This document shows, piece after piece, positions 945 through 26,578 of a stretch of DNA of 34,789 nucleotides. The notes under the pieces were generated by a model. It searched no databases and was not told where the DNA came from. It saw only the letters and a program-made list of their open reading frames with translations. Positions within the stretch are counted from its first letter, which is position 1, and each line of letters begins with the position of its first letter. Position numbers and translations under genes: made by a program. The stretch covers positions 1 to 34,789 of IMG/VR virus record IMGVR_UViG_3300050505_000049, one strand, 5' to 3'. This DNA is from a virus.

Positions 945-1197
945 ACTTCACAAAATGCAATAGCGTTTGCAAGCCAATTAATAAACTCACACTGCCTACC
1001 GTCATTTTTAAATACAAAGAGCTTAATTTCATTTCTAGGGTTAACAAATCCTGTTTTGTAGCTAGCTGGTTATCCATAAGACCCCCTAATATTTCTGCCG
1101 TTGCCTCTGCCTGAACCTCTGCGAGTCTCGCGTCAGCTCCCGCAGCTTTCAGTCTATTGGCAAAAGCTAAGGTGTCAAAGGTTGCGTGTGCCATCAT
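943..1197 (-). CDS. DUF1640-like coiled-coil protein
   Basis: Start taken at the ATG at 1197, with GAGG 5 nt upstream and no overlap with the upstream stop at 1209. The product MMAHATFDTLAFANRLKAAGADARLAEVQAEATAEILGG...LATKQDLLTLEMKL resembles the DUF1640 pattern from memory, with a hydrophobic C-terminus. Confidence 0.6.
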   Translation of the reverse strand: MMAHATFDTLAFANRLKAAGADARLAEVQAEATAEILGGLMDNQLATKQDLLTLEMKLSSLYLKMTVGSVSLLIGLQTLLHFVK

Positions 1198-5129: not shown

Positions 5130-6698
5130 ATGGACTTTTATAAGCTGTACGCAAGATTCAATGAAACGAAGCAGTATAAAGACCGCTGGCTTGCGCTATA
5201 CAAAAATCTTTATTTCTATGTCATCCCTGACCGAGACGCATTTAATGTGAAGTGGAACTATCGTGACGATGGTAAACCAACCACCGTTCAGATTTGGGAT
5301 AACACTGCAATGTTGGCCGCGTACCAACGAGCGAACGATTTACACGCATTGCTTCTACCCAAGGATAGGGTGTGGGGCAAGATGGTATTAGACCCGCATT
5401 TATTTGAACCTGCGGCCATTGAACAAGCACAAGGAACAGTCGATGAAGTCAACGAGCGAATTTTATTTTACCTTAATCAATCGAATCTTGCGCGTATCGT
5501 GTCTAGCAGTAATCTTGATCTTGTTGGTGGAACTGGCGCTATTTGGGTCGAGTCTATTGACGACAACACCCCTCTTTACTTCCGATCAATCCCCGCTGTT
5601 GCTTTGTACATCGAATACTCAACTGATGATGTCCTAAATACATGCTGGTATCAGTGCAAGATGACAGGGCGACAAATCCTTGAGACGTTCCCGAACTATC
5701 GCGGCACTGGCAAAGCGACATGCTCTGGCGCACCTGACGATATCTTCATGGTGATGTACGGGCAAATTAAAATGGCTGAGGACAAATTTTATTTATATGC
5801 AGTGCTTGAGATCGACCCCTTCACACCGATGTGGGAGACAGAGCGTGGATATAATCAAATTATTATTTATCGTGATCGCGTTCGCCCTGGCGAGTCTGAT
5901 GGGCGTGGCATTGGGATTGACCTTTTGCCTACAATTCAGGATTTAAACCGAATCGTGGCTTATGATCGAATGAGCCAAGCGTTTAAAGCAAACCCTCCGA
6001 TGTTCTATGACAATGATGCGTACTTCAACCCGTACAGCGTTCGTCAATGGGCAGGTGCAATGATTGCTAGAAAGCCGATGGCGCGCAATCCGCTTGAAGC
6101 TTTACAGATGCCGACCTATCCCGACACATTACAAACCATCCTTCATTTGCAGGATGTCATCATGAAAGGCTTTCAGGTTGACCCATTGGGTGAAGTTAAT
6201 ACGCCTGTTAAGTCTGCAACCGAGGTTTCTATACGTGAGAATCGCGCGCAACGAACGTCTGCGACTGACATTAGCCGCTTGATTAACGAATTGCCGCGAC
6301 AAATTTATGAAGTGTCAGCAAAGATTCTAGCTGAACGCAGACTGCTAACCAAAGATCGTTCTATCGGTGCTATCAACACGAAACGTTTTCGTTTTGACTT
6401 CCAATCACCGCTCTACGATTTACAAAAACAAGATGACCTTAACCACTTCATTACAAACTTACAGGTTAAGCAACAGTTCTTTGGTCAAGGCGCTGCAATG
6501 GCGACAGTTGATTTACCCACAGCAAATCAATTCTTAACTGACAAGCTCAACTTACCATCGAAACTATTTGTGACCTCAGATCAATTGAAACAATACATTC
6601 AGTTGGCAGCGCAGCAAGCACAACAAGCGGCATTACCGTCGCCGTCTACCGCTGCGGGCAAAGTTAATTTCCCTCAACAATCGCAGGTACAGTTCTAA
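5130..6698 (+). CDS. Portal (head-tail connector) protein
   Basis: The 522-aa length is close to T7-type connectors. It sits directly upstream of the scaffold and major capsid genes, in T7-like order. No HMM search was possible. Confidence 0.7.
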   Translation: MDFYKLYARFNETKQYKDRWLALYKNLYFYVIPDRDAFNVKWNYRDDGKPTTVQIWDNTAMLAAYQRANDLHALLLPKDRVWGKMVLDPHLFEPAAIEQAQGTVDEVNERILFYLNQSNLARIVSSSNLDLVGGTGAIWVESIDDNTPLYFRSIPAVALYIEYSTDDVLNTCWYQCKMTGRQILETFPNYRGTGKATCSGAPDDIFMVMYGQIKMAEDKFYLYAVLEIDPFTPMWETERGYNQIIIYRDRVRPGESDGRGIGIDLLPTIQDLNRIVAYDRMSQAFKANPPMFYDNDAYFNPYSVRQWAGAMIARKPMARNPLEALQMPTYPDTLQTILHLQDVIMKGFQVDPLGEVNTPVKSATEVSIRENRAQRTSATDISRLINELPRQIYEVSAKILAERRLLTKDRSIGAINTKRFRFDFQSPLYDLQKQDDLNHFITNLQVKQQFFGQGAAMATVDLPTANQFLTDKLNLPSKLFVTSDQLKQYIQLAAQQAQQAALPSPSTAAGKVNFPQQSQVQF

Positions 6699-15702: not shown

Positions 15703-17762
15703 TGGCTAATCCTAGAATTGATGAAGGCGCACCGCCAATAGCACCACCTCCACTTGATGCCTCCCAACCACAAGTGCCAAAGCCTGTGCCGCCCAGGACT
15801 GACCCCGATGCCGTACCGCAATCGTTGTCCGTGCTGTCGCCTATCAATCAGTATTATCAAGGCTCACGTTTAAACGTGCCTTCGCTCTCAACCTCCATAT
15901 TCACTCGTGGTGGCATTGGATTTATGAAGCCTTTCGTTGGTATCTCTGCCGCGTTAGGACAGATTAAACCTGACGAGGCGCAAGCGTGGCAGCTTATGAA
16001 AGATGTGGTTGACCTTGATAACTCGTCACCACTTCAAAGCCCATTGCAGCGCGGAGCGGGGGAAGCGGCTGATTTCACAGGCTCGATTTTAAATCCTATC
16101 TCATTGCTGACGGCTGAGGCTGGCGGTGCCATTGTTGCGGGTGGCTCAAGGTTGCTACCTTCAATCGTTCCGAAAGCCCTAACCAAGATAGGGGAAACCC
16201 CAGTCAGTAAGATATTAGGTGAGAACGCAGAGCGCTATATCCCAAAGATTGCGGAAGGCGACACTAAACGAATTGCAACGCTTGCCGATATTGGCGCGCG
16301 TAAGATGAAAGCCTTTGGCATTGGAGCGGGCGTATCGCTTCCCACGGAGCTTGAATCAAACTTTGATACCAAGAACAATACCATCAATTATCGTGGCGCT
16401 GTGGCTGGTACAGCTCAAGGAGGCGGTATTGCAGTCGGCCTTGACACAATCCCTTACCTTTGGGGCGTCTTTCGTGGCAAGTTTAAAGCGGCTACAGGAC
16501 AGGCCATTGAGGAAGTTGCACCCGCGGCTTTAGATGAAACGCTCGACCATCTTCAAAAGTCAGGCGCGCTCACCGAAGCTGAGGTCAACTGGTACAAAGA
16601 ATATCGTGCTAACCCTCACGAGCCATCCGAAGATTTTGTCTCTCGATCTTCTAAAATGCTGCTTGATGACGGCCACAATGTCGATACCGCTCGCGGTAAA
16701 GTAATGCACGATATTCTGACGCCAAGTGATATGAAAAACCTGAACATTGGTGTTTCAGATCAAATTGCCGCAAGCCTTGCTAATGATGGGAATGCCTTCA
16801 CGGATTTTGTGTGGGGTTCAAAGCTTGACGAGATGCGTGCAAACCCTACCTCACTTGATGGGATTGAAGGCGTACTATCATCTTTGAATGAGAAACTTGC
16901 AGCTCAACCAGGCGCACTTGCAGCAATTGATAGCTTTGTTGAGAAGTACGGCACCCGTAACTGGCGCAGACTCAGACCATTCTCACAAGAGAACCTTTAC
17001 AAGAAAATGGTTGAGAAGGGTTTGACCTCGGAAGAAATGCCCGTGGTCGTGCCCGAAGCTGTTTCCAAACGCATAGCAATGGAAAAGCGTATCGAATCTT
17101 TAGAAGCGGCTAACAAAAATTACGAGACGCAAAAAGCTGCGGCCACAAATATTCCCGTACAGAAACGTTATGCCAAATATATTGAGCGTAACGAAAAGAA
17201 AATTGCTGACCTTCATGTCAAAAAGCCTGAGATTCTAAGCCCGAAAGACGAGCTTAAATCACTACATGATTCAATGGTTAAGGATGGCAAGCTAGTCGAT
17301 AACTTTAAGCATACCCGTGATTATCATCGCCTTGTTGATCTTGCGAAAGTTGAGACAGGTGCGCGCTCGATGCTCTATCGTATTAACTCAATTGCGCAAT
17401 ATGAAAAGCAAGCCGCTTATAGAGACATGCTGCAATTTTTCTCGAACGTTATGCAGACCAATTTTGACAAGCTGGCTGACTCAAAAAAGATTTTGGACTA
17501 CATGAAAAATCGTATCGAAGATAAATTACCAAAAGAAATTAAAGATCAAGTAAGACTTGAAGATGTCCAGAAAGCCGTCAAGGATGTACCTGACGATTAC
17601 GAAAAAGTGCTTGACGATACTCGTGACGCGCTGCGTGAGAATGCACCCAAAGAGTTAGCGGCAGAGTACGAGGAAGCAGCGGCGAAAGTGAAAGAGTTTA
17701 CGAAGTCTGAAAACATATTTAAAAATTTAATCTCGTGTGTAATGGGGTCACTCAATGGCTAA
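15702..17762 (+). CDS. Internal virion / ejection protein (large), Pro-rich N-terminus
   Basis: 686 aa, coupled to the previous gene by TAATG. The N-terminus is PPIAPPPLDASQPQVPKPVPP. Confidence 0.55.
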   Translation: MANPRIDEGAPPIAPPPLDASQPQVPKPVPPRTDPDAVPQSLSVLSPINQYYQGSRLNVPSLSTSIFTRGGIGFMKPFVGISAALGQIKPDEAQAWQLMKDVVDLDNSSPLQSPLQRGAGEAADFTGSILNPISLLTAEAGGAIVAGGSRLLPSIVPKALTKIGETPVSKILGENAERYIPKIAEGDTKRIATLADIGARKMKAFGIGAGVSLPTELESNFDTKNNTINYRGAVAGTAQGGGIAVGLDTIPYLWGVFRGKFKAATGQAIEEVAPAALDETLDHLQKSGALTEAEVNWYKEYRANPHEPSEDFVSRSSKMLLDDGHNVDTARGKVMHDILTPSDMKNLNIGVSDQIAASLANDGNAFTDFVWGSKLDEMRANPTSLDGIEGVLSSLNEKLAAQPGALAAIDSFVEKYGTRNWRRLRPFSQENLYKKMVEKGLTSEEMPVVVPEAVSKRIAMEKRIESLEAANKNYETQKAAATNIPVQKRYAKYIERNEKKIADLHVKKPEILSPKDELKSLHDSMVKDGKLVDNFKHTRDYHRLVDLAKVETGARSMLYRINSIAQYEKQAAYRDMLQFFSNVMQTNFDKLADSKKILDYMKNRIEDKLPKEIKDQVRLEDVQKAVKDVPDDYEKVLDDTRDALRENAPKELAAEYEEAAAKVKEFTKSENIFKNLISCVMGSLNG

Positions 17763-20148: not shown

Positions 20149-21867
20149 ATGAGTAATTTGCCGCAGCAAAGCACGATCAATCAATACGTGGCCGATGGTA
20201 TCACCACGATTTATAACTACACGTTCCTGATCTTAAGCGCTAATGCTAGCGCTAATGATATTTCAGTTTACGTCACCCCTTCGGGTCAACCAGCGGTTCC
20301 AACATCCGACATTCAAGTTTTGAATGAAGATTACAGCGTTCAGAACGTTGGAAATGTCAGCGGTGGCACAATTACTTTCTTGCCTGGCGCAATTCCTGCG
20401 AACGGTTCTATCGTTACAATCGTGCGGACGATGAACGTTTCAATCGACACCGAATTTGCGCAAGCTCAAAACTTTAATGGTGCGAATTTAGATAGTGCTT
20501 TCGAGCGCGTTGTCTTAATCATGCAACAACTAAATACCTATTACATGAACAATGCGTTGTCTTATGTAATTAACAGCTACCTGCCTACCCTTGGACTAAA
20601 CTTTTTGCCCGTCCTCACTAACGTAGACAATCAAGTTTGGATTAGCCAAGGTGGGAGAATCATTGCAGCCGTGCTTCAAAATGACGATATGAGTACGCTG
20701 CGCAGTCAGTTAGCGAGCCAAGTACCTTTCGGTGATGGCGCATCGTTAATTGGGTTTTACGATACAGTGAACAACATTGGCACCACACTAGATACTTTTT
20801 TAAATACTTACCCACGCCCGAACAATGGAAACATTATCATTGGCGGTGATATGACAACGAACCCTTGGCAAAGGTCGATTACTTTTCCTGTCGTCACTAC
20901 CAATTTTTATTTGAATGATAGGTTCTTGTATTTTGTTCAAGGCGCGCCGACTGGGGCAATCAGCGCAAATAAAGTTATTGATTCGCCAACCGTATCAGAG
21001 TCAGGTTTATTCGGTGTGAACTCAATTCAGATCGGGGTACAAACCGCTCAAACGGTTATTGCTGCCAACGATCTTTATACTTATCAGTACCGCGTCGAAG
21101 GCTATGACTTTACCTTTATCGCGCAGCGCAATTTCACTTTAAGTTTTTGGGTGAAGTCGAACTTGCCAGGCATCTATCATGCAGCGTTTTCAAATGGCGT
21201 CGATCAATCTTACGTTGCTCCGTTTACGATTTCAGGCTCGAATGTTTGGCAGAAAATTTCGATTACGGTGCCAGCTTCCCCTGCGTCTGGAACATGGAAT
21301 TATACGAATGGAGCTGGGCTTCTCGTCTCGATTGTTTTGGCTGCGGGTTCCAATTACCAAGGCACAACAAACGCTTGGGTCGGCAGTTATATTTATGCCT
21401 CCGCGAGCCAAATTAATTTCATGAGTTCAACGACAAACACAATTAACTTTGACCGTTTCTGTTTGGAACCAGGCAACCTTTCAACTCCTTGGGTTGCCCG
21501 TTCCATTGAAGAAGAACTTGCTTTGTGTGAACGCTATTATCAAAAGAGTTACAACATTGCTGACGGGTCAACGACTACTGTATTACCAGGCTCGACACTG
21601 CTTATTTTGGGTGGCGCACCTGCAAACAATACTGGGTTTGCGAGTCAACCATTCCGTACACGAATGAGGGATACGCCGACTTGTTTTCTATTTTCACCCG
21701 TGACAGGCGCTACTAATAATGTCGCTGACTTAACCTCAGCAACAGACAAAGCGTGTACTCCTATTGAAGCCTCAGAGACAGGATTTTATCTTGAGAACAC
21801 ATCGGGCGGCGCTTTGACTGATACGCATGTTCTTGCCTGGCATTGGCAAGCTAGCGCTGAACTATAA
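20149..21867 (+). CDS. Tail fibre/spike with a T7 gp17-like N-terminal tail-attachment domain
   Basis: The N-terminus (INQYVADGITTIYNYTF ... LNEDYSV ... GSIVTIVRTMNVSIDTEF...NLDSAFERVVLIMQQL) follows the pattern of the T7 tail-fibre N-terminal domain. The C-terminal region has the EELALCERYY motif I recall from phage tail proteins. Confidence 0.65.
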   Translation: MSNLPQQSTINQYVADGITTIYNYTFLILSANASANDISVYVTPSGQPAVPTSDIQVLNEDYSVQNVGNVSGGTITFLPGAIPANGSIVTIVRTMNVSIDTEFAQAQNFNGANLDSAFERVVLIMQQLNTYYMNNALSYVINSYLPTLGLNFLPVLTNVDNQVWISQGGRIIAAVLQNDDMSTLRSQLASQVPFGDGASLIGFYDTVNNIGTTLDTFLNTYPRPNNGNIIIGGDMTTNPWQRSITFPVVTTNFYLNDRFLYFVQGAPTGAISANKVIDSPTVSESGLFGVNSIQIGVQTAQTVIAANDLYTYQYRVEGYDFTFIAQRNFTLSFWVKSNLPGIYHAAFSNGVDQSYVAPFTISGSNVWQKISITVPASPASGTWNYTNGAGLLVSIVLAAGSNYQGTTNAWVGSYIYASASQINFMSSTTNTINFDRFCLEPGNLSTPWVARSIEEELALCERYYQKSYNIADGSTTTVLPGSTLLILGGAPANNTGFASQPFRTRMRDTPTCFLFSPVTGATNNVADLTSATDKACTPIEASETGFYLENTSGGALTDTHVLAWHWQASAEL

Positions 21868-21889
21868 TGTTCCACGTAGAACAAAAATT

Positions 21890-23350
21890 ATGAATTTAGG
21901 CGCAATTGAGACGAGATATGCTAAGATTGCCGAAGCCATCGAGATGAAAAGTGCGGTGCAATACACCACATATCGAGACGCTAAAGGCAATCTGTGCATT
22001 CAATTTGCAAGTGGTGAGCATTTGGTCTTACCGCTGGTTCCTTTTCGTCCATATCAGCTAGAAGCACAAACTGCATTATTTATAGACAATCTCAGGCGTG
22101 TTTTAGTACAAAGACCGCGCCGCTCTGGTAAAGAAATGGAATCGTGGAACATTACTGTTCAGGGCGCCATCGTAGAACCTGGCCTCTATATAGTAGTCTA
22201 CCCCACTAACGTAAGAGCCAAGGCTATTCTATGGGATGGTGCCATTCTTTTGCCAGGCAACCGAAGCGTAAAGTTTCGGGATATGATTCCAAAGCAGTTG
22301 ATACTCGGTAAACCCAATGAACAGGAAATGAAGATCAAGTTGATTAACGGCTCGATCATTTGGATTGTGGGTTCTGACATCGACCCTGATAAGCTCCGCG
22401 GTACGAACCCTCGCGGTATTGTCTTGGCTGAGTTTGCGTTCTGTGACCCTCGCGTGTTCTATACCATGCTGCCTGTGTTGCGTCAGAATGGCGGTTGGCT
22501 ATGGGGTCAATCGACCTACAATGGCATGAACCATTTCTATAGGCTCATGGAAAATAATCGCAATGACCCGCTGTGGTATTGCCGTAGTGATAGCATTGAA
22601 AATCTCGTTGACGAAAATGGTGAACGCTACATCACTGACGAGATGATTGACGAAGATAGAAGGGCGGGTATGCCTGAATATCTTATTCAACAAGAGTATT
22701 ACGGCAAGGTTCAATTGAACCAAGAAACCATCTTTTTCTCGAACGAAATTAACAATCTTCACAAGCGTGGCATGATCGAGCAAGGCTTATATATTCCCAA
22801 TAAAAGATGTTATGCGTTTTACGATATTGGGATGAATGATACAACGGCTCTCACTATCGCCCAGCTCGATAATAGGGGCGACCCTTACGCCATTGGTTAC
22901 TTTGAAGGTAATAATAAACCTTTCCGTCATTATGTGGGTCTAGGACATGCTTTTGCCAATTCCTATGGCCTCAGATTACATGCGCATTACGTGCCCCATG
23001 ATGGTAAAAAGCGTGACTGGAACACAGGAAAAAATACCGTAGACTTTGGCTATGAGATAGGCGAGGAAGTCCATATCGTGCCGCGCCCTACTAATAAAAT
23101 GAATGCCATTGAGTCCATGAGACAAATGCTTTACAGGACAAGATTTAACAAGGAAAATACAGGAAGATTGATTGATTGTTTGTCAAGCTACTCGAAGGAG
23201 TTTGACGATAAACGGGGCGTTTACAAGGATGAACCCCTGCACAATTGGGCATGTCACGGAGTAGATAGTTTTCAAACGATGACCCTAGCAGTGGAGGCTG
23301 GGTTAGTCAATGAAAAGACCTACGATGTGATATACAATAACGGTATATAA
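21890..23350 (+). CDS. Terminase large subunit
   Basis: Walker-A-like QRPRRSGKE and Walker-B-like GIVLAEFAF are present. Nuclease-domain acidic motifs (FYDIGMNDTTAL, HYVPHDG, HGVDSFQ) are also present. The start at 21890 follows the previous stop, but no clear SD was found. Confidence 0.85.
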   Translation: MNLGAIETRYAKIAEAIEMKSAVQYTTYRDAKGNLCIQFASGEHLVLPLVPFRPYQLEAQTALFIDNLRRVLVQRPRRSGKEMESWNITVQGAIVEPGLYIVVYPTNVRAKAILWDGAILLPGNRSVKFRDMIPKQLILGKPNEQEMKIKLINGSIIWIVGSDIDPDKLRGTNPRGIVLAEFAFCDPRVFYTMLPVLRQNGGWLWGQSTYNGMNHFYRLMENNRNDPLWYCRSDSIENLVDENGERYITDEMIDEDRRAGMPEYLIQQEYYGKVQLNQETIFFSNEINNLHKRGMIEQGLYIPNKRCYAFYDIGMNDTTALTIAQLDNRGDPYAIGYFEGNNKPFRHYVGLGHAFANSYGLRLHAHYVPHDGKKRDWNTGKNTVDFGYEIGEEVHIVPRPTNKMNAIESMRQMLYRTRFNKENTGRLIDCLSSYSKEFDDKRGVYKDEPLHNWACHGVDSFQTMTLAVEAGLVNEKTYDVIYNNGI

Positions 23351-25724: not shown

Positions 25725-25890
25725 CGTTCGTTCCCTCTACATTCCATGTTGTCGGGTCACATATCTGAGATAAGTGTAGATGACGTTTAGTTGAAGTACA
25801 ACCAGGCCAATCACATTTGAAGGGGCGCTCTTTGCCACAGTCACAGTTAAATAGGTCTTTGGAACAGCCGCCACAGATTAATATTTCCAT
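25714..25890 (-). CDS. 58-aa Cys-rich (zinc-ribbon-like) protein, below the ORF-track cutoff
   Basis: The product is MEILICGGCSKDLFNCDCGKERPFKCDWPGCTSTKRHLHLSQICDPTTWNVEGTNDAI. It overlaps the downstream start by 11 nt. The SD is weak. Confidence 0.45.
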   Translation of the reverse strand: MEILICGGCSKDLFNCDCGKERPFKCDWPGCTSTKRHLHLSQICDPTTWNVEGTNDAI

Positions 25891-25937
25891 CTACCAATTA
25901 CCTACTAATTTCTACCATATTGGTAGGTTCAACAAAA

Positions 25938-26011
25938 TGGTTTAGAGGGATGGAATCGAACCACCATTCACAGCTTCAAAGGCTGCTGTCCTACCGTTAG
26001 ACGACCTCTAA
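25938..26011 (-). tRNA. tRNA-Gln (anticodon UUG), CCA encoded
   Basis: The 74-nt RNA is TTAGAGG-TC-GTCT-AACGGTA-GGAC-A-GCAGC-CTTTGAA-GCTGT-GAAT-GGTGG-TTCGATT-CCATC-CCTCTAA-A-CCA. It folds as a full cloverleaf with U8, A14, GG in the D loop, U33 and a TTCGATT T loop. Confidence 0.85.
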
Positions 26012-26019
26012 ATAATAGG

Positions 26020-26131
26020 TGGGAATCGGAGGGATTTGAACCCTCGATTTGGTAGCGGTATTGCTGTTTAGAAGCACCGCCCTATACCTAGTCTAAACTT
26101 CACGTTTCGGCCAGACTCACGCACGATTCCC
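26020..26131 (-). tRNA. Atypical 112-nt tRNA-like gene, anticodon not assignable
   Basis: The - strand RNA starts GGGAATCG-TG-CGT-GAGTCTGGCCGAA-ACG-T, has about 56 central nt, and ends GAGGG-TTCAAAT-CCCTC-CGATTCCC-A. The acceptor stem is perfect at 7 or 8 bp, the T arm is canonical and the D arm resembles class II tRNAs. No standard 5-bp/7-nt anticodon arm follows the D arm. Confidence 0.55.
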
Positions 26132-26186
26132 ATAACTTTGTTTACATCTTTTGAAACATGGAAATAAACCTCGCTGATTTGTTTAC

Positions 26187-26215
26187 ATTGAATAGGCGGA
26201 GAGTGAAAGACTCAA
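26187..26215 (-). promoter_or_regulatory. Weak candidate promoter upstream of the tRNA genes
   Basis: On the - strand: TTGAGT (26215-26210), 17-nt spacer, TTCAAT (26192-26187). It overlaps one copy of the 11-mer ATGTAAACAAA. Confidence 0.3.
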
Positions 26216-26293
26216 CCAGCGAGATTGATGATGTTGTTTGCGCGCAACTTCTTTAAGGTTGTACGTACATCACGCCTCACACTCCCCATTAAC

Positions 26294-26578
26294 TTATTTA
26301 CGTCGTTGCGACGCCTTACGCTTTTGCTGTGATTTTGATTCGTCTGGTGCTGGTGGAGCAACTGGCTCCTTCAGAGCCGCTGGCAAATCTACGACCCAGT
26401 GGTGCGCAGGGTCGGAAACGAAGTTTGATGTTACCTTCACATCCGACGCAAGCGCGCCGAGGTTCTGTATTTGTACCAGGCTGAATGTCTTTACCAACCA
26501 ACCACCAATAACCATCATTCGGTCTGTACGCGATTGTTTATCAGCGCTTAATTGTATCGTTTCCCACGTCAATTCCAT
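26294..26578 (-). CDS. Hypothetical protein
   Basis: 94-aa ORF with AAGGAG 8 nt upstream of the ATG at 26578, in the same orientation as the operon. It has a basic C-terminal tail. Confidence 0.65.
   Translation of the reverse strand: MELTWETIQLSADKQSRTDRMMVIGGWLVKTFSLVQIQNLGALASDVKVTSNFVSDPAHHWVVDLPAALKEPVAPPAPDESKSQQKRKASQRRK

Follow-up and report, generated by a model that had tools for sequence, protein, structure and literature searches.

A 34,789-nucleotide (nt) stretch of viral DNA, IMG/VR record IMGVR_UViG_3300050505_000049 (positions 1 to 34,789, called the window below), carries on its minus strand a 112-nt gene for a transfer RNA (tRNA)-like RNA, read from the sequence as lying at 26131-26020 with its discriminator base included. 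Comparison of this element with its relatives shows that it is a real, conserved gene for a structured, tRNA-derived RNA and suggests that the product is a nondecoding small RNA, a "natural tRNA scaffold" whose center may act as a decoy or regulator; we give this reading a probability of about 0.6. The RNA itself cannot read codons. An earlier note on the window, made by eye, had offered several identities for the element, and of these the tRNA mimic or decoy fits best, given the compensatory changes between homologs, the lack of an anticodon stem-loop, and a center with conserved helices of its own.

The core features of a canonical tRNA are present in the window copy (acceptor, D, and T arms; U8, A14, G18G19, and T54-Psi55-C56), with an acceptor helix of 8 bp versus the usual 7; the coordinates of its parts are collected in Table 1, where RNA position p equals 26132 minus the window coordinate. 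Its U9 and G10 are the canonical U8 and G9, and the D arm, which can alternatively be drawn with a 4-bp stem (GCGU/ACGU), is of the class II type, with equivalents of A14, G18G19, and A21. Directly 5' of the acceptor stands the leader GUUAU, with U at position -1, and tRNA-Gln(UUG) starts 8 nt past discriminator A112. The distance from the D arm to the T arm is exactly 56 nt (31-86), which replace the anticodon and variable arms. The acceptor helix, T arm, class II-like D arm, gap of about 56 nt, and tRNA-Gln 8 nt away that the earlier note had described are all read in the sequence, and inspection agrees with it that no standard arm of a 5-bp stem and a 7-nt loop follows the D arm. No arm of this kind with U33 and a purine at position 37 was found there; a single 7-nt hairpin loop is available, UCUAAAC, in which C stands where U33 would be and which, according to covariation, pairs with positions 34-40.

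The 13-bp geometry that the same note had proposed, an 8-bp acceptor on a 5-bp T stem, is borne out by NCCA or NCCU tails directly after the eighth pair in the window copy and in L019, L026, and L033 (L-numbers denote related loci or contigs). The encoded 3' end is ACC in the window copy, ACCU in L026 and L215, and GCCA in L019 and L033, and because these bases directly follow the eighth pair, the pair is read as part of the stem and its C not as the discriminator; a tRNA-His-type G-1:C73 pair was rejected on the same grounds. The base after the encoded ACC in the window is U, so the terminal A would have to be added posttranscriptionally. No open reading frame (ORF) of at least 60 amino acids (aa) in the window's ORF list overlaps the element, and a short-ORF reading (ATG GGA ATC ...) was rejected, as it has nonsynonymous changes and an earlier stop in L019 and lacks a Shine-Dalgarno sequence.

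Evidence of selection on structure comes from two close homologs. L019, an IMG/VR contig of otherwise unrelated gene content, carries a copy that is 88.6% identical to that of the window, with 16 substitutions inside the RNA in an ungapped alignment, and 10 of the 16 make five compensatory pairs: acceptor pair 3 (G:C in the window to C:G in L019), pairs 35:65 (U:A to C:G) and 39:61 (G:C to U:A) in the central helix S1 described below, pair 53:76 (C:G to U:A), and T-stem pair 88:102 (A:U to U:A, in both L019 and L215). Among the others, one turns acceptor pair G2:C into G2.U, two lie in the D loop, one at T-loop position 57 keeps a purine, and one changes the discriminator from A to G; G55A, which breaks 55:74, is the one substitution left unexplained. 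Loops 41-50, 67-71, and 79-86 contain no substitutions, and the 3' part of the center (67-86) is the same in L019 save for the compensated G76A. When the 3' partners were slid by 1 to 3 columns as a control, pairing fell from 98% to 32 to 55% and all double changes were lost. The second homolog, L215, comes from a Logan contig; its DUF669 protein has 97% identity to that of the window, and its cluster matches the window's (the candidate small RNA called unit X, the tRNA-like gene, and tRNA-Gln); the center of its tRNA-like RNA is identical to that of the window, with two changes in the D loop, where positions 17, 18, and 23 differ among the three copies. As judged by comparison of these three sequences, the changes are the signature of a structured RNA under selection and not of a pseudogene. 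An exact 26-mer of the T arm plus acceptor had no match in IMG/VR, and a pattern specific for the center of this type (type A) retrieved from IMG/VR only L019 plus chance matches.

The three central helices named in the earlier note all exist in the sequence. One of them, the 7-bp helix GUUUAGA/UCUAAAC (S1; 34-40/60-66), is firmly supported by two compensatory double changes relative to L019; the pseudoknot that the note had built on these strands is supported as far as this helix goes. GAAGU/GCUUC excludes S1 and is broken in L019 (G31.A61), and UGCU/AGCA is sterically incompatible with the full 7-bp S1, leaving zero nucleotides for the connecting loop. The minimum-free-energy fold, which pairs the D-loop sequence AGUCUGG with UUAGACU (36-42), was likewise rejected, being broken by substitutions in L019 and L215. 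There are two candidates for the crossing helix. Helix (a), GGUAU (44-48) with AUACC (71-75), is invariant in all three copies, and a hairpin in L217 (UAGGUAU..AAUACCG) resembles it; helix (b), GGCGGUG (51-57) with UACCGCU (72-78), gains the 53:76 compensation and loses 55:74 in L019, and its combined stacking energy with S1, -25.8 kcal/mol, was equalled in 0 of 200 shuffles. The two are mutually exclusive, and each would form an H-type pseudoknot with S1, so that these models make a pseudoknot in the center likely.

A chance origin of the arms is countered by a descriptor search in which an 8-bp acceptor had to abut a 5-bp T stem with G-UUCRANN-C and to be joined by a 4-bp D stem: in the real window only the tRNA-like element and tRNA-Gln matched, and when the whole window was shuffled 300 times with dinucleotides preserved and both strands were searched, there was 1 match. 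Standard callers pass over the element. ARAGORN called the adjacent tRNA-Gln and not the element, and Rfam at gathering score found tRNA-Gln alone; neither returned a standard class II tRNA in which an anticodon is clear, the outcome that the earlier note had named as telling against an unusual status. In a relaxed Rfam scan (25850-26300 at E <= 10), the bare T arm matched fragments of the transfer-messenger RNA (tmRNA) and tRNA models (tmRNA, 14.8 bits versus 47, 18 nt), together with a few chance matches such as mascRNA (15.6 bits versus a gathering score of 42.5). A whole-molecule match to the tRNA covariance model (RF00005; gathering score, 29 bits) was absent, with only T-arm fragments found in the window copy and L019 at E <= 10.

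The element belongs to a family with a shared chassis and variable centers. A pattern that fixes AAUCG, GCGU, GUUCRANNC, and CGAUU and leaves the spacers free was run over IMG/VR, metagenome contigs of the Joint Genome Institute (JGI), and GTDB genomes. It retrieved 22 loci (duplicate contig copies counted) with features beyond the pattern itself, namely, U at -1 after an AU-rich leader, three further complementary acceptor pairs, a closed D stem, and a complementary T stem; the roughly 100 remaining matches were without those features. None of the 43 matches in GTDB bacterial genomes had the acceptor, D, and T structure, and no host genome or prophage was found among them. The window's own copy was not among the pattern matches in the three collections, from which the window thus appears to be missing. 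After deduplication, the types (85 to 111 nt) are window/L019/L215, L016 (with variant L079), L017, L018, L020/L021, L024, L026, L033, and L065. About 12 sequence types on soil-phage contigs have the chassis GGNAAUCG/CGAUUNNC, GCGU/ACGY, and the T arm in common, and their centers, of 32 to 56 nt, are unrelated in sequence between types. The D stem is closed in every member, although the pattern required just its 5' half, and the discriminator is A, G, or U. Three members were found without the pattern: L013, by a scan of a RecE-related contig, has the same acceptor; L217, reached via its DUF669 neighbor, ends in GGCAAUCG/CGAUUGCC-ACCA and has the same D arm and a rearranged interior; and L167, a positional ortholog, has the acceptor GGCAACCU/AGGUUGUC and GGCAA..UUGUC ends. 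L018 and L167 can be drawn with an 8/4 geometry.

An alignment of 11 types was built from helices alone; MAFFT misaligned the type A D arm. In the helix alignment, 97.3% of cells are paired, and double changes occur in six pairs (acceptor pairs 2 and 3 and T-stem pairs 1 to 4); its covariation score was reached by 0 of 500 shuffles, slid controls pair at 30 to 44%, and the pattern-fixed bases carry no information in this test. By eye, each type seemed to contain a convincing pseudoknot; this was dropped as a family feature because, outside the window copy and marginally L019, the best crossing-helix energies lie within chance. On this comparison, the family trait is a conserved chassis with a variable center, not a pseudoknot. 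Rfam 15 has no model matching the family, and literature searches for phage tRNA-like RNAs without an anticodon arm turned up no account of one like it; it is apparently undescribed.

Several other unusual RNAs occur in the phages carrying these loci or in related ones. L184 has a separate uncalled tRNA-like gene of 96 nt (16696-16791, minus strand), with a long irregular central arm and with acceptor GGCACAU/AUGUGCC, D arm UGGCA-AAUGGCG-UGCCA, and T arm CUAGG-UUCGAUU-CCUAG, which suggests that aberrant tRNA-like genes recur in that phage group. Beside the family member of L033 lies a tRNA (1036-1121, minus strand) whose UCCUAGA loop has CUA in the anticodon position and C33; it has two anticodon-stem mismatches and a 14-nt extra region, is labeled "tRNA-Pyl" by ARAGORN, and may be a suppressor tRNA. 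In L065, the type I element is followed, about 145 nt downstream, by a tRNA-Gln, and a conserved, apparently structured spacer of about 130 to 150 nt separates the tRNA-like gene from the neighboring tRNAs in L033 (905-1030, minus strand) and L065 (432-570, minus strand). This spacer contains the motifs ..gaactcaac..ctacctaaccca..ggttaaatacctt..gggtcggca.taatagggatcgga..gtgaaagc.. and has no Rfam match.

If the element is a nondecoding small-RNA gene, its transcript would come from the 3' end of the recE-recT-DUF669 operon, which runs leftward, and cotranscription with this operon and tRNA-Gln is the simplest assumption because no promoter or terminator is predicted nearby. RNase P would cleave between U-1 and G+1 of each unit, the 3' trailer would be trimmed to ACC, and the CCA-adding enzyme would supply the terminal A. 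The chassis may confer tRNA-like stability and access to tRNA-binding factors, and the variable center would be the working part: by binding a protein or another RNA it would serve as a decoy or regulator, possibly in phage-host conflict. Several points weigh against this reading. Its support consists of sequence comparison and predicted folds; no partner was identified, and in the search for an antisense target in the window, the longest complementarity of the center was 12 nt, a length reached by 28 of 200 shuffled centers. The absence of a predicted promoter or terminator around the element also belongs here, as do the two competing candidates for the second pseudoknot helix, judged from only three type A sequences, and the finding that the best crossing-helix energies of the other types lie within chance, the exceptions being the window copy and marginally L019. 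Most family members were retrieved by a base-fixing pattern, so that the conservation of those bases is partly circular, and ARAGORN called L033 a tRNA-Asp(GUC) with the loop CUGUCAU, so that some members may decode.

Among the alternatives, an antisense regulator on a tRNA-like frame, with exposed loops of the center pairing with phage or host mRNA in the manner of the phage C4 RNA, appears unlikely. Rfam, which holds a C4 model, returned no antisense-RNA family in scans of the region, and the complementarity found in the window is at the chance level given above; moreover, a near-identical RNA in an unrelated phage makes a conserved target more likely to lie in the host. What speaks for this explanation is that loops 41-50, 67-71, and 79-86 are invariant between the window copy and L019 while the stems change, that neighboring units in related phages bear conserved loop motifs such as CCUCAUCACUAAUGA and GCGCAAAC, and that there is a precedent in the C4 antisense RNA of P1 and P7, which has a tRNA-like structure and is released from a longer transcript by RNase P (PMC3858429). 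The same frame could instead serve an aminoacylatable tRNA mimic, charged, for instance, by leucyl-tRNA synthetase (LeuRS), that titrates a synthetase or elongation factor or donates an amino acid outside translation. The chassis does resemble the tRNA-Leu(CAG) of L036, keeps U8, A14, G18G19, A21, and the T loop, and has A73 with an encoded CC in the window copy and a full NCCA in some homologs; LeuRS of Escherichia coli is not known to depend on the anticodon or the variable arm. Against charging, the discriminator, which is a key identity element, is A in the window copy, G in L019, and U in other types, and this variation, even between the window copy and L019, argues against a conserved amino acid identity. 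With an 8-bp acceptor against the 7 bp of tRNA-Leu and no synthetase- or transferase-like gene among the ORFs scanned, charging seems distinctly unlikely.

We regard as quite improbable that the element is a decaying class II tRNA-Leu pseudogene or a cis-acting structure that processes or stabilizes the 3' end of the recET mRNA. The rejection by standard callers and the position at an operon end with no promoter or terminator of its own predicted would suit either, and tRNA-like structures are able to punctuate transcripts (PMC3858429); however, five compensatory pairs and invariant loops persist over 14% divergence, an otherwise unrelated genome has retained the same RNA, covariation of the chassis extends over about 12 types, and a conserved 56-nt pseudoknotted center is more than a simple processing signal would need. 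Least credible is a tRNA that decodes by way of an exotic anticodon domain, whether a suppressor or a tRNA-Sec- or allo-tRNA-like molecule. The 8/5 geometry is that of bacterial tRNA-Sec, and L033, with its tRNA-Asp(GUC) call, adjoins a tRNA with a CUA anticodon-like loop; against this, the window copy has no 5-bp/7-nt arm, its UCUAAAC loop is paired according to covariation, no tRNA or tRNA-Sec model matches, and the window's ORFs are intact in the standard code, which leaves no recoding to serve.

The phage represented by the window is novel and podovirus-like. Identity to proteins of the epsilon15, BcepC6B, phiV10, and Pelagibacter podophage types is only 21 to 26% for its portal, capsid, tail, and internal virion proteins. 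Read in the standard code, its ORFs are long and intact, and neither the locus nor the element had a DNA match in the INPHARED phage collection in near and distant search modes. A leftward operon of a recE-like exonuclease gene, recT, a DUF669 protein gene, and a 94-aa ORF has the element at its 3' end and converges on a tail-fiber gene; no synthetase, nucleotidyltransferase, transferase, or RNA ligase gene was found among the ORFs scanned. Between the tail-fiber genes, a 507-aa protein (21827-23350, plus strand) has 50 to 77% identity across the phage clade and weakly resembles terminase large subunits (PHROG 7579, E = 1e-7; Pfam GpA_ATPase, below cutoff). As single-protein IMG/VR queries, RecT and a virion structural protein had no relatives, and the tail-fiber query gave mostly unrelated repeat-domain matches. 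Exact-protein look-ups with two neighboring ORFs found only short contigs stopping short of the element; the exact-protein index holds near-identical short contigs and one Logan contig, L215, with a 97% identical neighbor protein.

The tentative second small RNA, unit X, shares the intergenic slot of the tRNA-like gene and lies upstream of it, with the leader UUAAU and an 8-bp terminal helix, GGGGAGUG/CACUCUCC, followed by GCC (fold z = -2.4). In L215, its G2:C has become A2:U, a compensatory change, and its G3.U has become G3:C; a related unit in L216 (4906-4981) has the motif AAUCUCGCUGGUU in common with it. In L167, L163, L171, L216, L217, and L223, the same slot, downstream of recET-DUF669, is filled by tandem small units that have in common a leader (UUUAU before G), an NCC(A/U) tail, and a terminal helix of 7 to 9 bp. 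Such arrays also occur in L019 and L024, where the tRNA-like gene comes last and the units end in NCCA and are followed by GUUUAU and then G (ACCA-GUUUAU before the next unit), and all family members are preceded by (A/U)UAU directly before the G, with U at -1 in an AU-rich leader. From its sequence, this layout is what RNase P substrates would be expected to show. The tandem units of L019 matched no Rfam family. One recurrent unit type reads GGCYGACGAUACU...GGGAAAAUAGGCC(ACCA) with a variable middle, and another, not present in the window, has the loop motif CCUCAUCACUAAUGA (..CACAAAG in L223), which could be an antisense or anti-Shine-Dalgarno-like sequence.

The locus behaves as accessory cargo, because its content differs between close relatives, the RNA is kept in an unrelated phage, and one neighbor is Tad2-like. 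L162, with 77% identity in the neighboring 507-aa protein, is without such an RNA, and about 160 nt downstream of the L217 tRNA-like RNA stands a gene (5153-5530, plus strand) for a protein with a Tad2-like (Thoeris anti-defense 2) domain (43.8 bits, E = 3.8e-11), which hints that the slot is an anti-defense or accessory island.

Table 1. Positions of the parts of the tRNA-like RNA gene, of its neighbors in the window, and of small units at related loci
Feature	Locus	Coordinates	Strand	Remarks
Candidate second small RNA, unit X	window	26195-26287	-	upstream of tRNA-like gene, same intergenic slot; tentative
Acceptor helix, 5' strand GGGAAUCG	window	26124-26131	-	RNA 1-8; pairs with CGAUUCCC
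U8, G9, and D arm	window	26102-26123	-	RNA 9-30; CGU / GAGUCUGGCCGAA / ACG
Helix S1, 5' strand GUUUAGA	window	26092-26098	-	RNA 34-40; two compensatory double changes vs L019
19 nt enclosed by S1, CUAGGUAUAGGGCGGUGCU	window	26073-26091	-	RNA 41-59; 5' strands of rival helices (a) and (b)
Helix S1, 3' strand UCUAAAC	window	26066-26072	-	RNA 60-66
Center, 3' part AGCAAUACCGCUACCAAAUC	window	26046-26065	-	RNA 67-86; 3' strands of helices (a) and (b), then 8-nt linker
T arm GAGGG-UUCAAAU-CCCUC	window	26029-26045	-	RNA 87-103
Acceptor helix, 3' strand CGAUUCCC	window	26021-26028	-	RNA 104-111
Discriminator A112 and encoded CC	window	26018-26020	-	next base U
Canonical tRNA-Gln(UUG)	window	25938-26011	-	ARAGORN; Rfam tRNA model, 62.2 bits
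Tandem units	L019	6277-6400	-	
Tandem units	L167	6540-6826	-	
Tandem units	L171	13945-14130	-	
Tandem units	L163	14960-15710	-	
Tandem units	L216	4906-5085		slot downstream of recET-DUF669
Tandem units	L217	4471-4570		slot downstream of recET-DUF669
Tandem units	L223	4594-4720		slot downstream of recET-DUF669
CCUCAUCACUAAUGA unit	L163	15674-15684		
CCUCAUCACUAAUGA unit	L165	4166-4176		
CCUCAUCACUAAUGA unit	L166	14282-14292		
CCUCAUCACUAAUGA unit	L170	15044-15054		
CCUCAUCACUAAUGA unit	L014	2909-2968		
CCUCAUCACUAAUGA unit	L223	4657-4714		

A wider and more tentative interpretation, which we consider possible though doubtful, is that, in one clade of soil podophages, tRNA ends serve as a cassette for expressing small RNAs in general. 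Interchangeable small-RNA arrays downstream of recET-DUF669 would be released by RNase P between UUAU and G and capped by an acceptor-type helix and NCCA; within them, the GGNAAUCG family would display hypervariable structured payloads, possibly decoys or inhibitors of tRNA-directed or other anti-phage defenses in an arms race. Noncoding tRNA-like RNAs are known as isolated cases, such as tmRNA, the C4 RNA of P1, YrlA, mascRNA, and the tRNA-like 3' ends of RNA viruses. If these phage RNAs are expressed, they would add a class of phage small RNAs missed by every tRNA caller, provide compact, naturally optimized scaffolds for RNA expression, and offer a testable entry to the use of tRNA-shaped molecules by phages against their hosts, as decoys for tRNA-binding enzymes, nucleases, or defense systems. 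The analysis also flags, in soil phages of a poorly known group, an accessory RNA locus with tandem RNase P-type units.

Among known molecules, the closest to the chassis is a phage tRNA-Leu. The metagenomic locus L036 carries a normal class II tRNA-Leu(CAG) with acceptor GCAAUCG/CGAUUGC-A-CCA and D arm GCGU-AAUGGCAA-ACGC, and its T arm is 95% identical to that of the window copy over 20 nt. The two have in common the acceptor GCAAUCG/CGAUUGC, the D arm GCGU-AAUGG.AA-ACGC, and the T arm GGGUUCAAGUCCCUC, as well as the A73-CCA end, U8, A14, G18G19, and T-loop signature of class II tRNA-Leu; the window copy differs in having an eighth pair at the top, no anticodon stem-loop, no variable arm, and a 56-nt insert with its own helices. 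Because acceptor, D, and T arms match, the chassis looks, from sequence likeness, to be derived from a phage tRNA-Leu with one base pair gained at the top. The intron- or insert-bearing class II tRNA suggested in the earlier note is upheld as to the tRNA-Leu-like chassis and fails as to the intron: on inspection of the sequence, no contiguous excision restores a 5-bp/7-nt anticodon arm, and no intron family was matched in Rfam at E <= 10. The 56-nt insert is also far shorter than group I introns.

The 8/5, 13-bp geometry is the same as that of bacterial tRNA-Sec, a molecule with a 6-bp D stem, a 4-nt D loop, a UCA anticodon, and a long variable arm; unlike it, the window copy has a D stem of 3 to 4 bp, a 13-nt loop, no UCA loop, and no tRNA-Sec-type match. 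Allo-tRNAs resemble it in having an acceptor stem of more than 7 bp, and the paper describing them also found them in soil metagenomes and in phages and considered that they might act as regulatory noncoding RNAs (PMC5389517). They have an 8/4 or 9/3 geometry, a 12-bp acceptor branch, and normal anticodon arms (PMC5389517), whereas the window copy is 8/5 and has no anticodon arm, so that the suggestion of an allo-tRNA-like molecule was not borne out. The tRNA-like domain of tmRNA, which is matured by RNase P, likewise joins an acceptor helix to a T arm without an anticodon and has pseudoknots in its body; an ARAGORN tmRNA search was negative, and the window copy differs in its length (112 nt versus a 374-position Rfam model), its true D stem, and the lack of a tag reading frame. 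It also has G3:C70, the alanine identity pair being G3.U70.

Compared with C4, the window copy has full-size canonical D and T loops. YrlA, a bacterial Y RNA, and mascRNA are, like it, nondecoding tRNA-like RNAs; the termini of YrlA lie in the Ro-binding stem and not in the acceptor stem, a topology opposite to that of the window copy. The nearest counterpart in design is the engineered tRNA scaffold of Ponchon and Dardel, in which replacement of the anticodon arm gives stable, correctly processed RNAs (PMC3753655). The window copy follows the same plan, with the acceptor, T, and D arms kept and a foreign structured RNA in place of the anticodon arm. The laboratory scaffold is man-made, whereas here about a dozen inserts appear to occur naturally on one chassis, and a DNA-phage family that combines one tRNA chassis with many central domains would be its natural counterpart.

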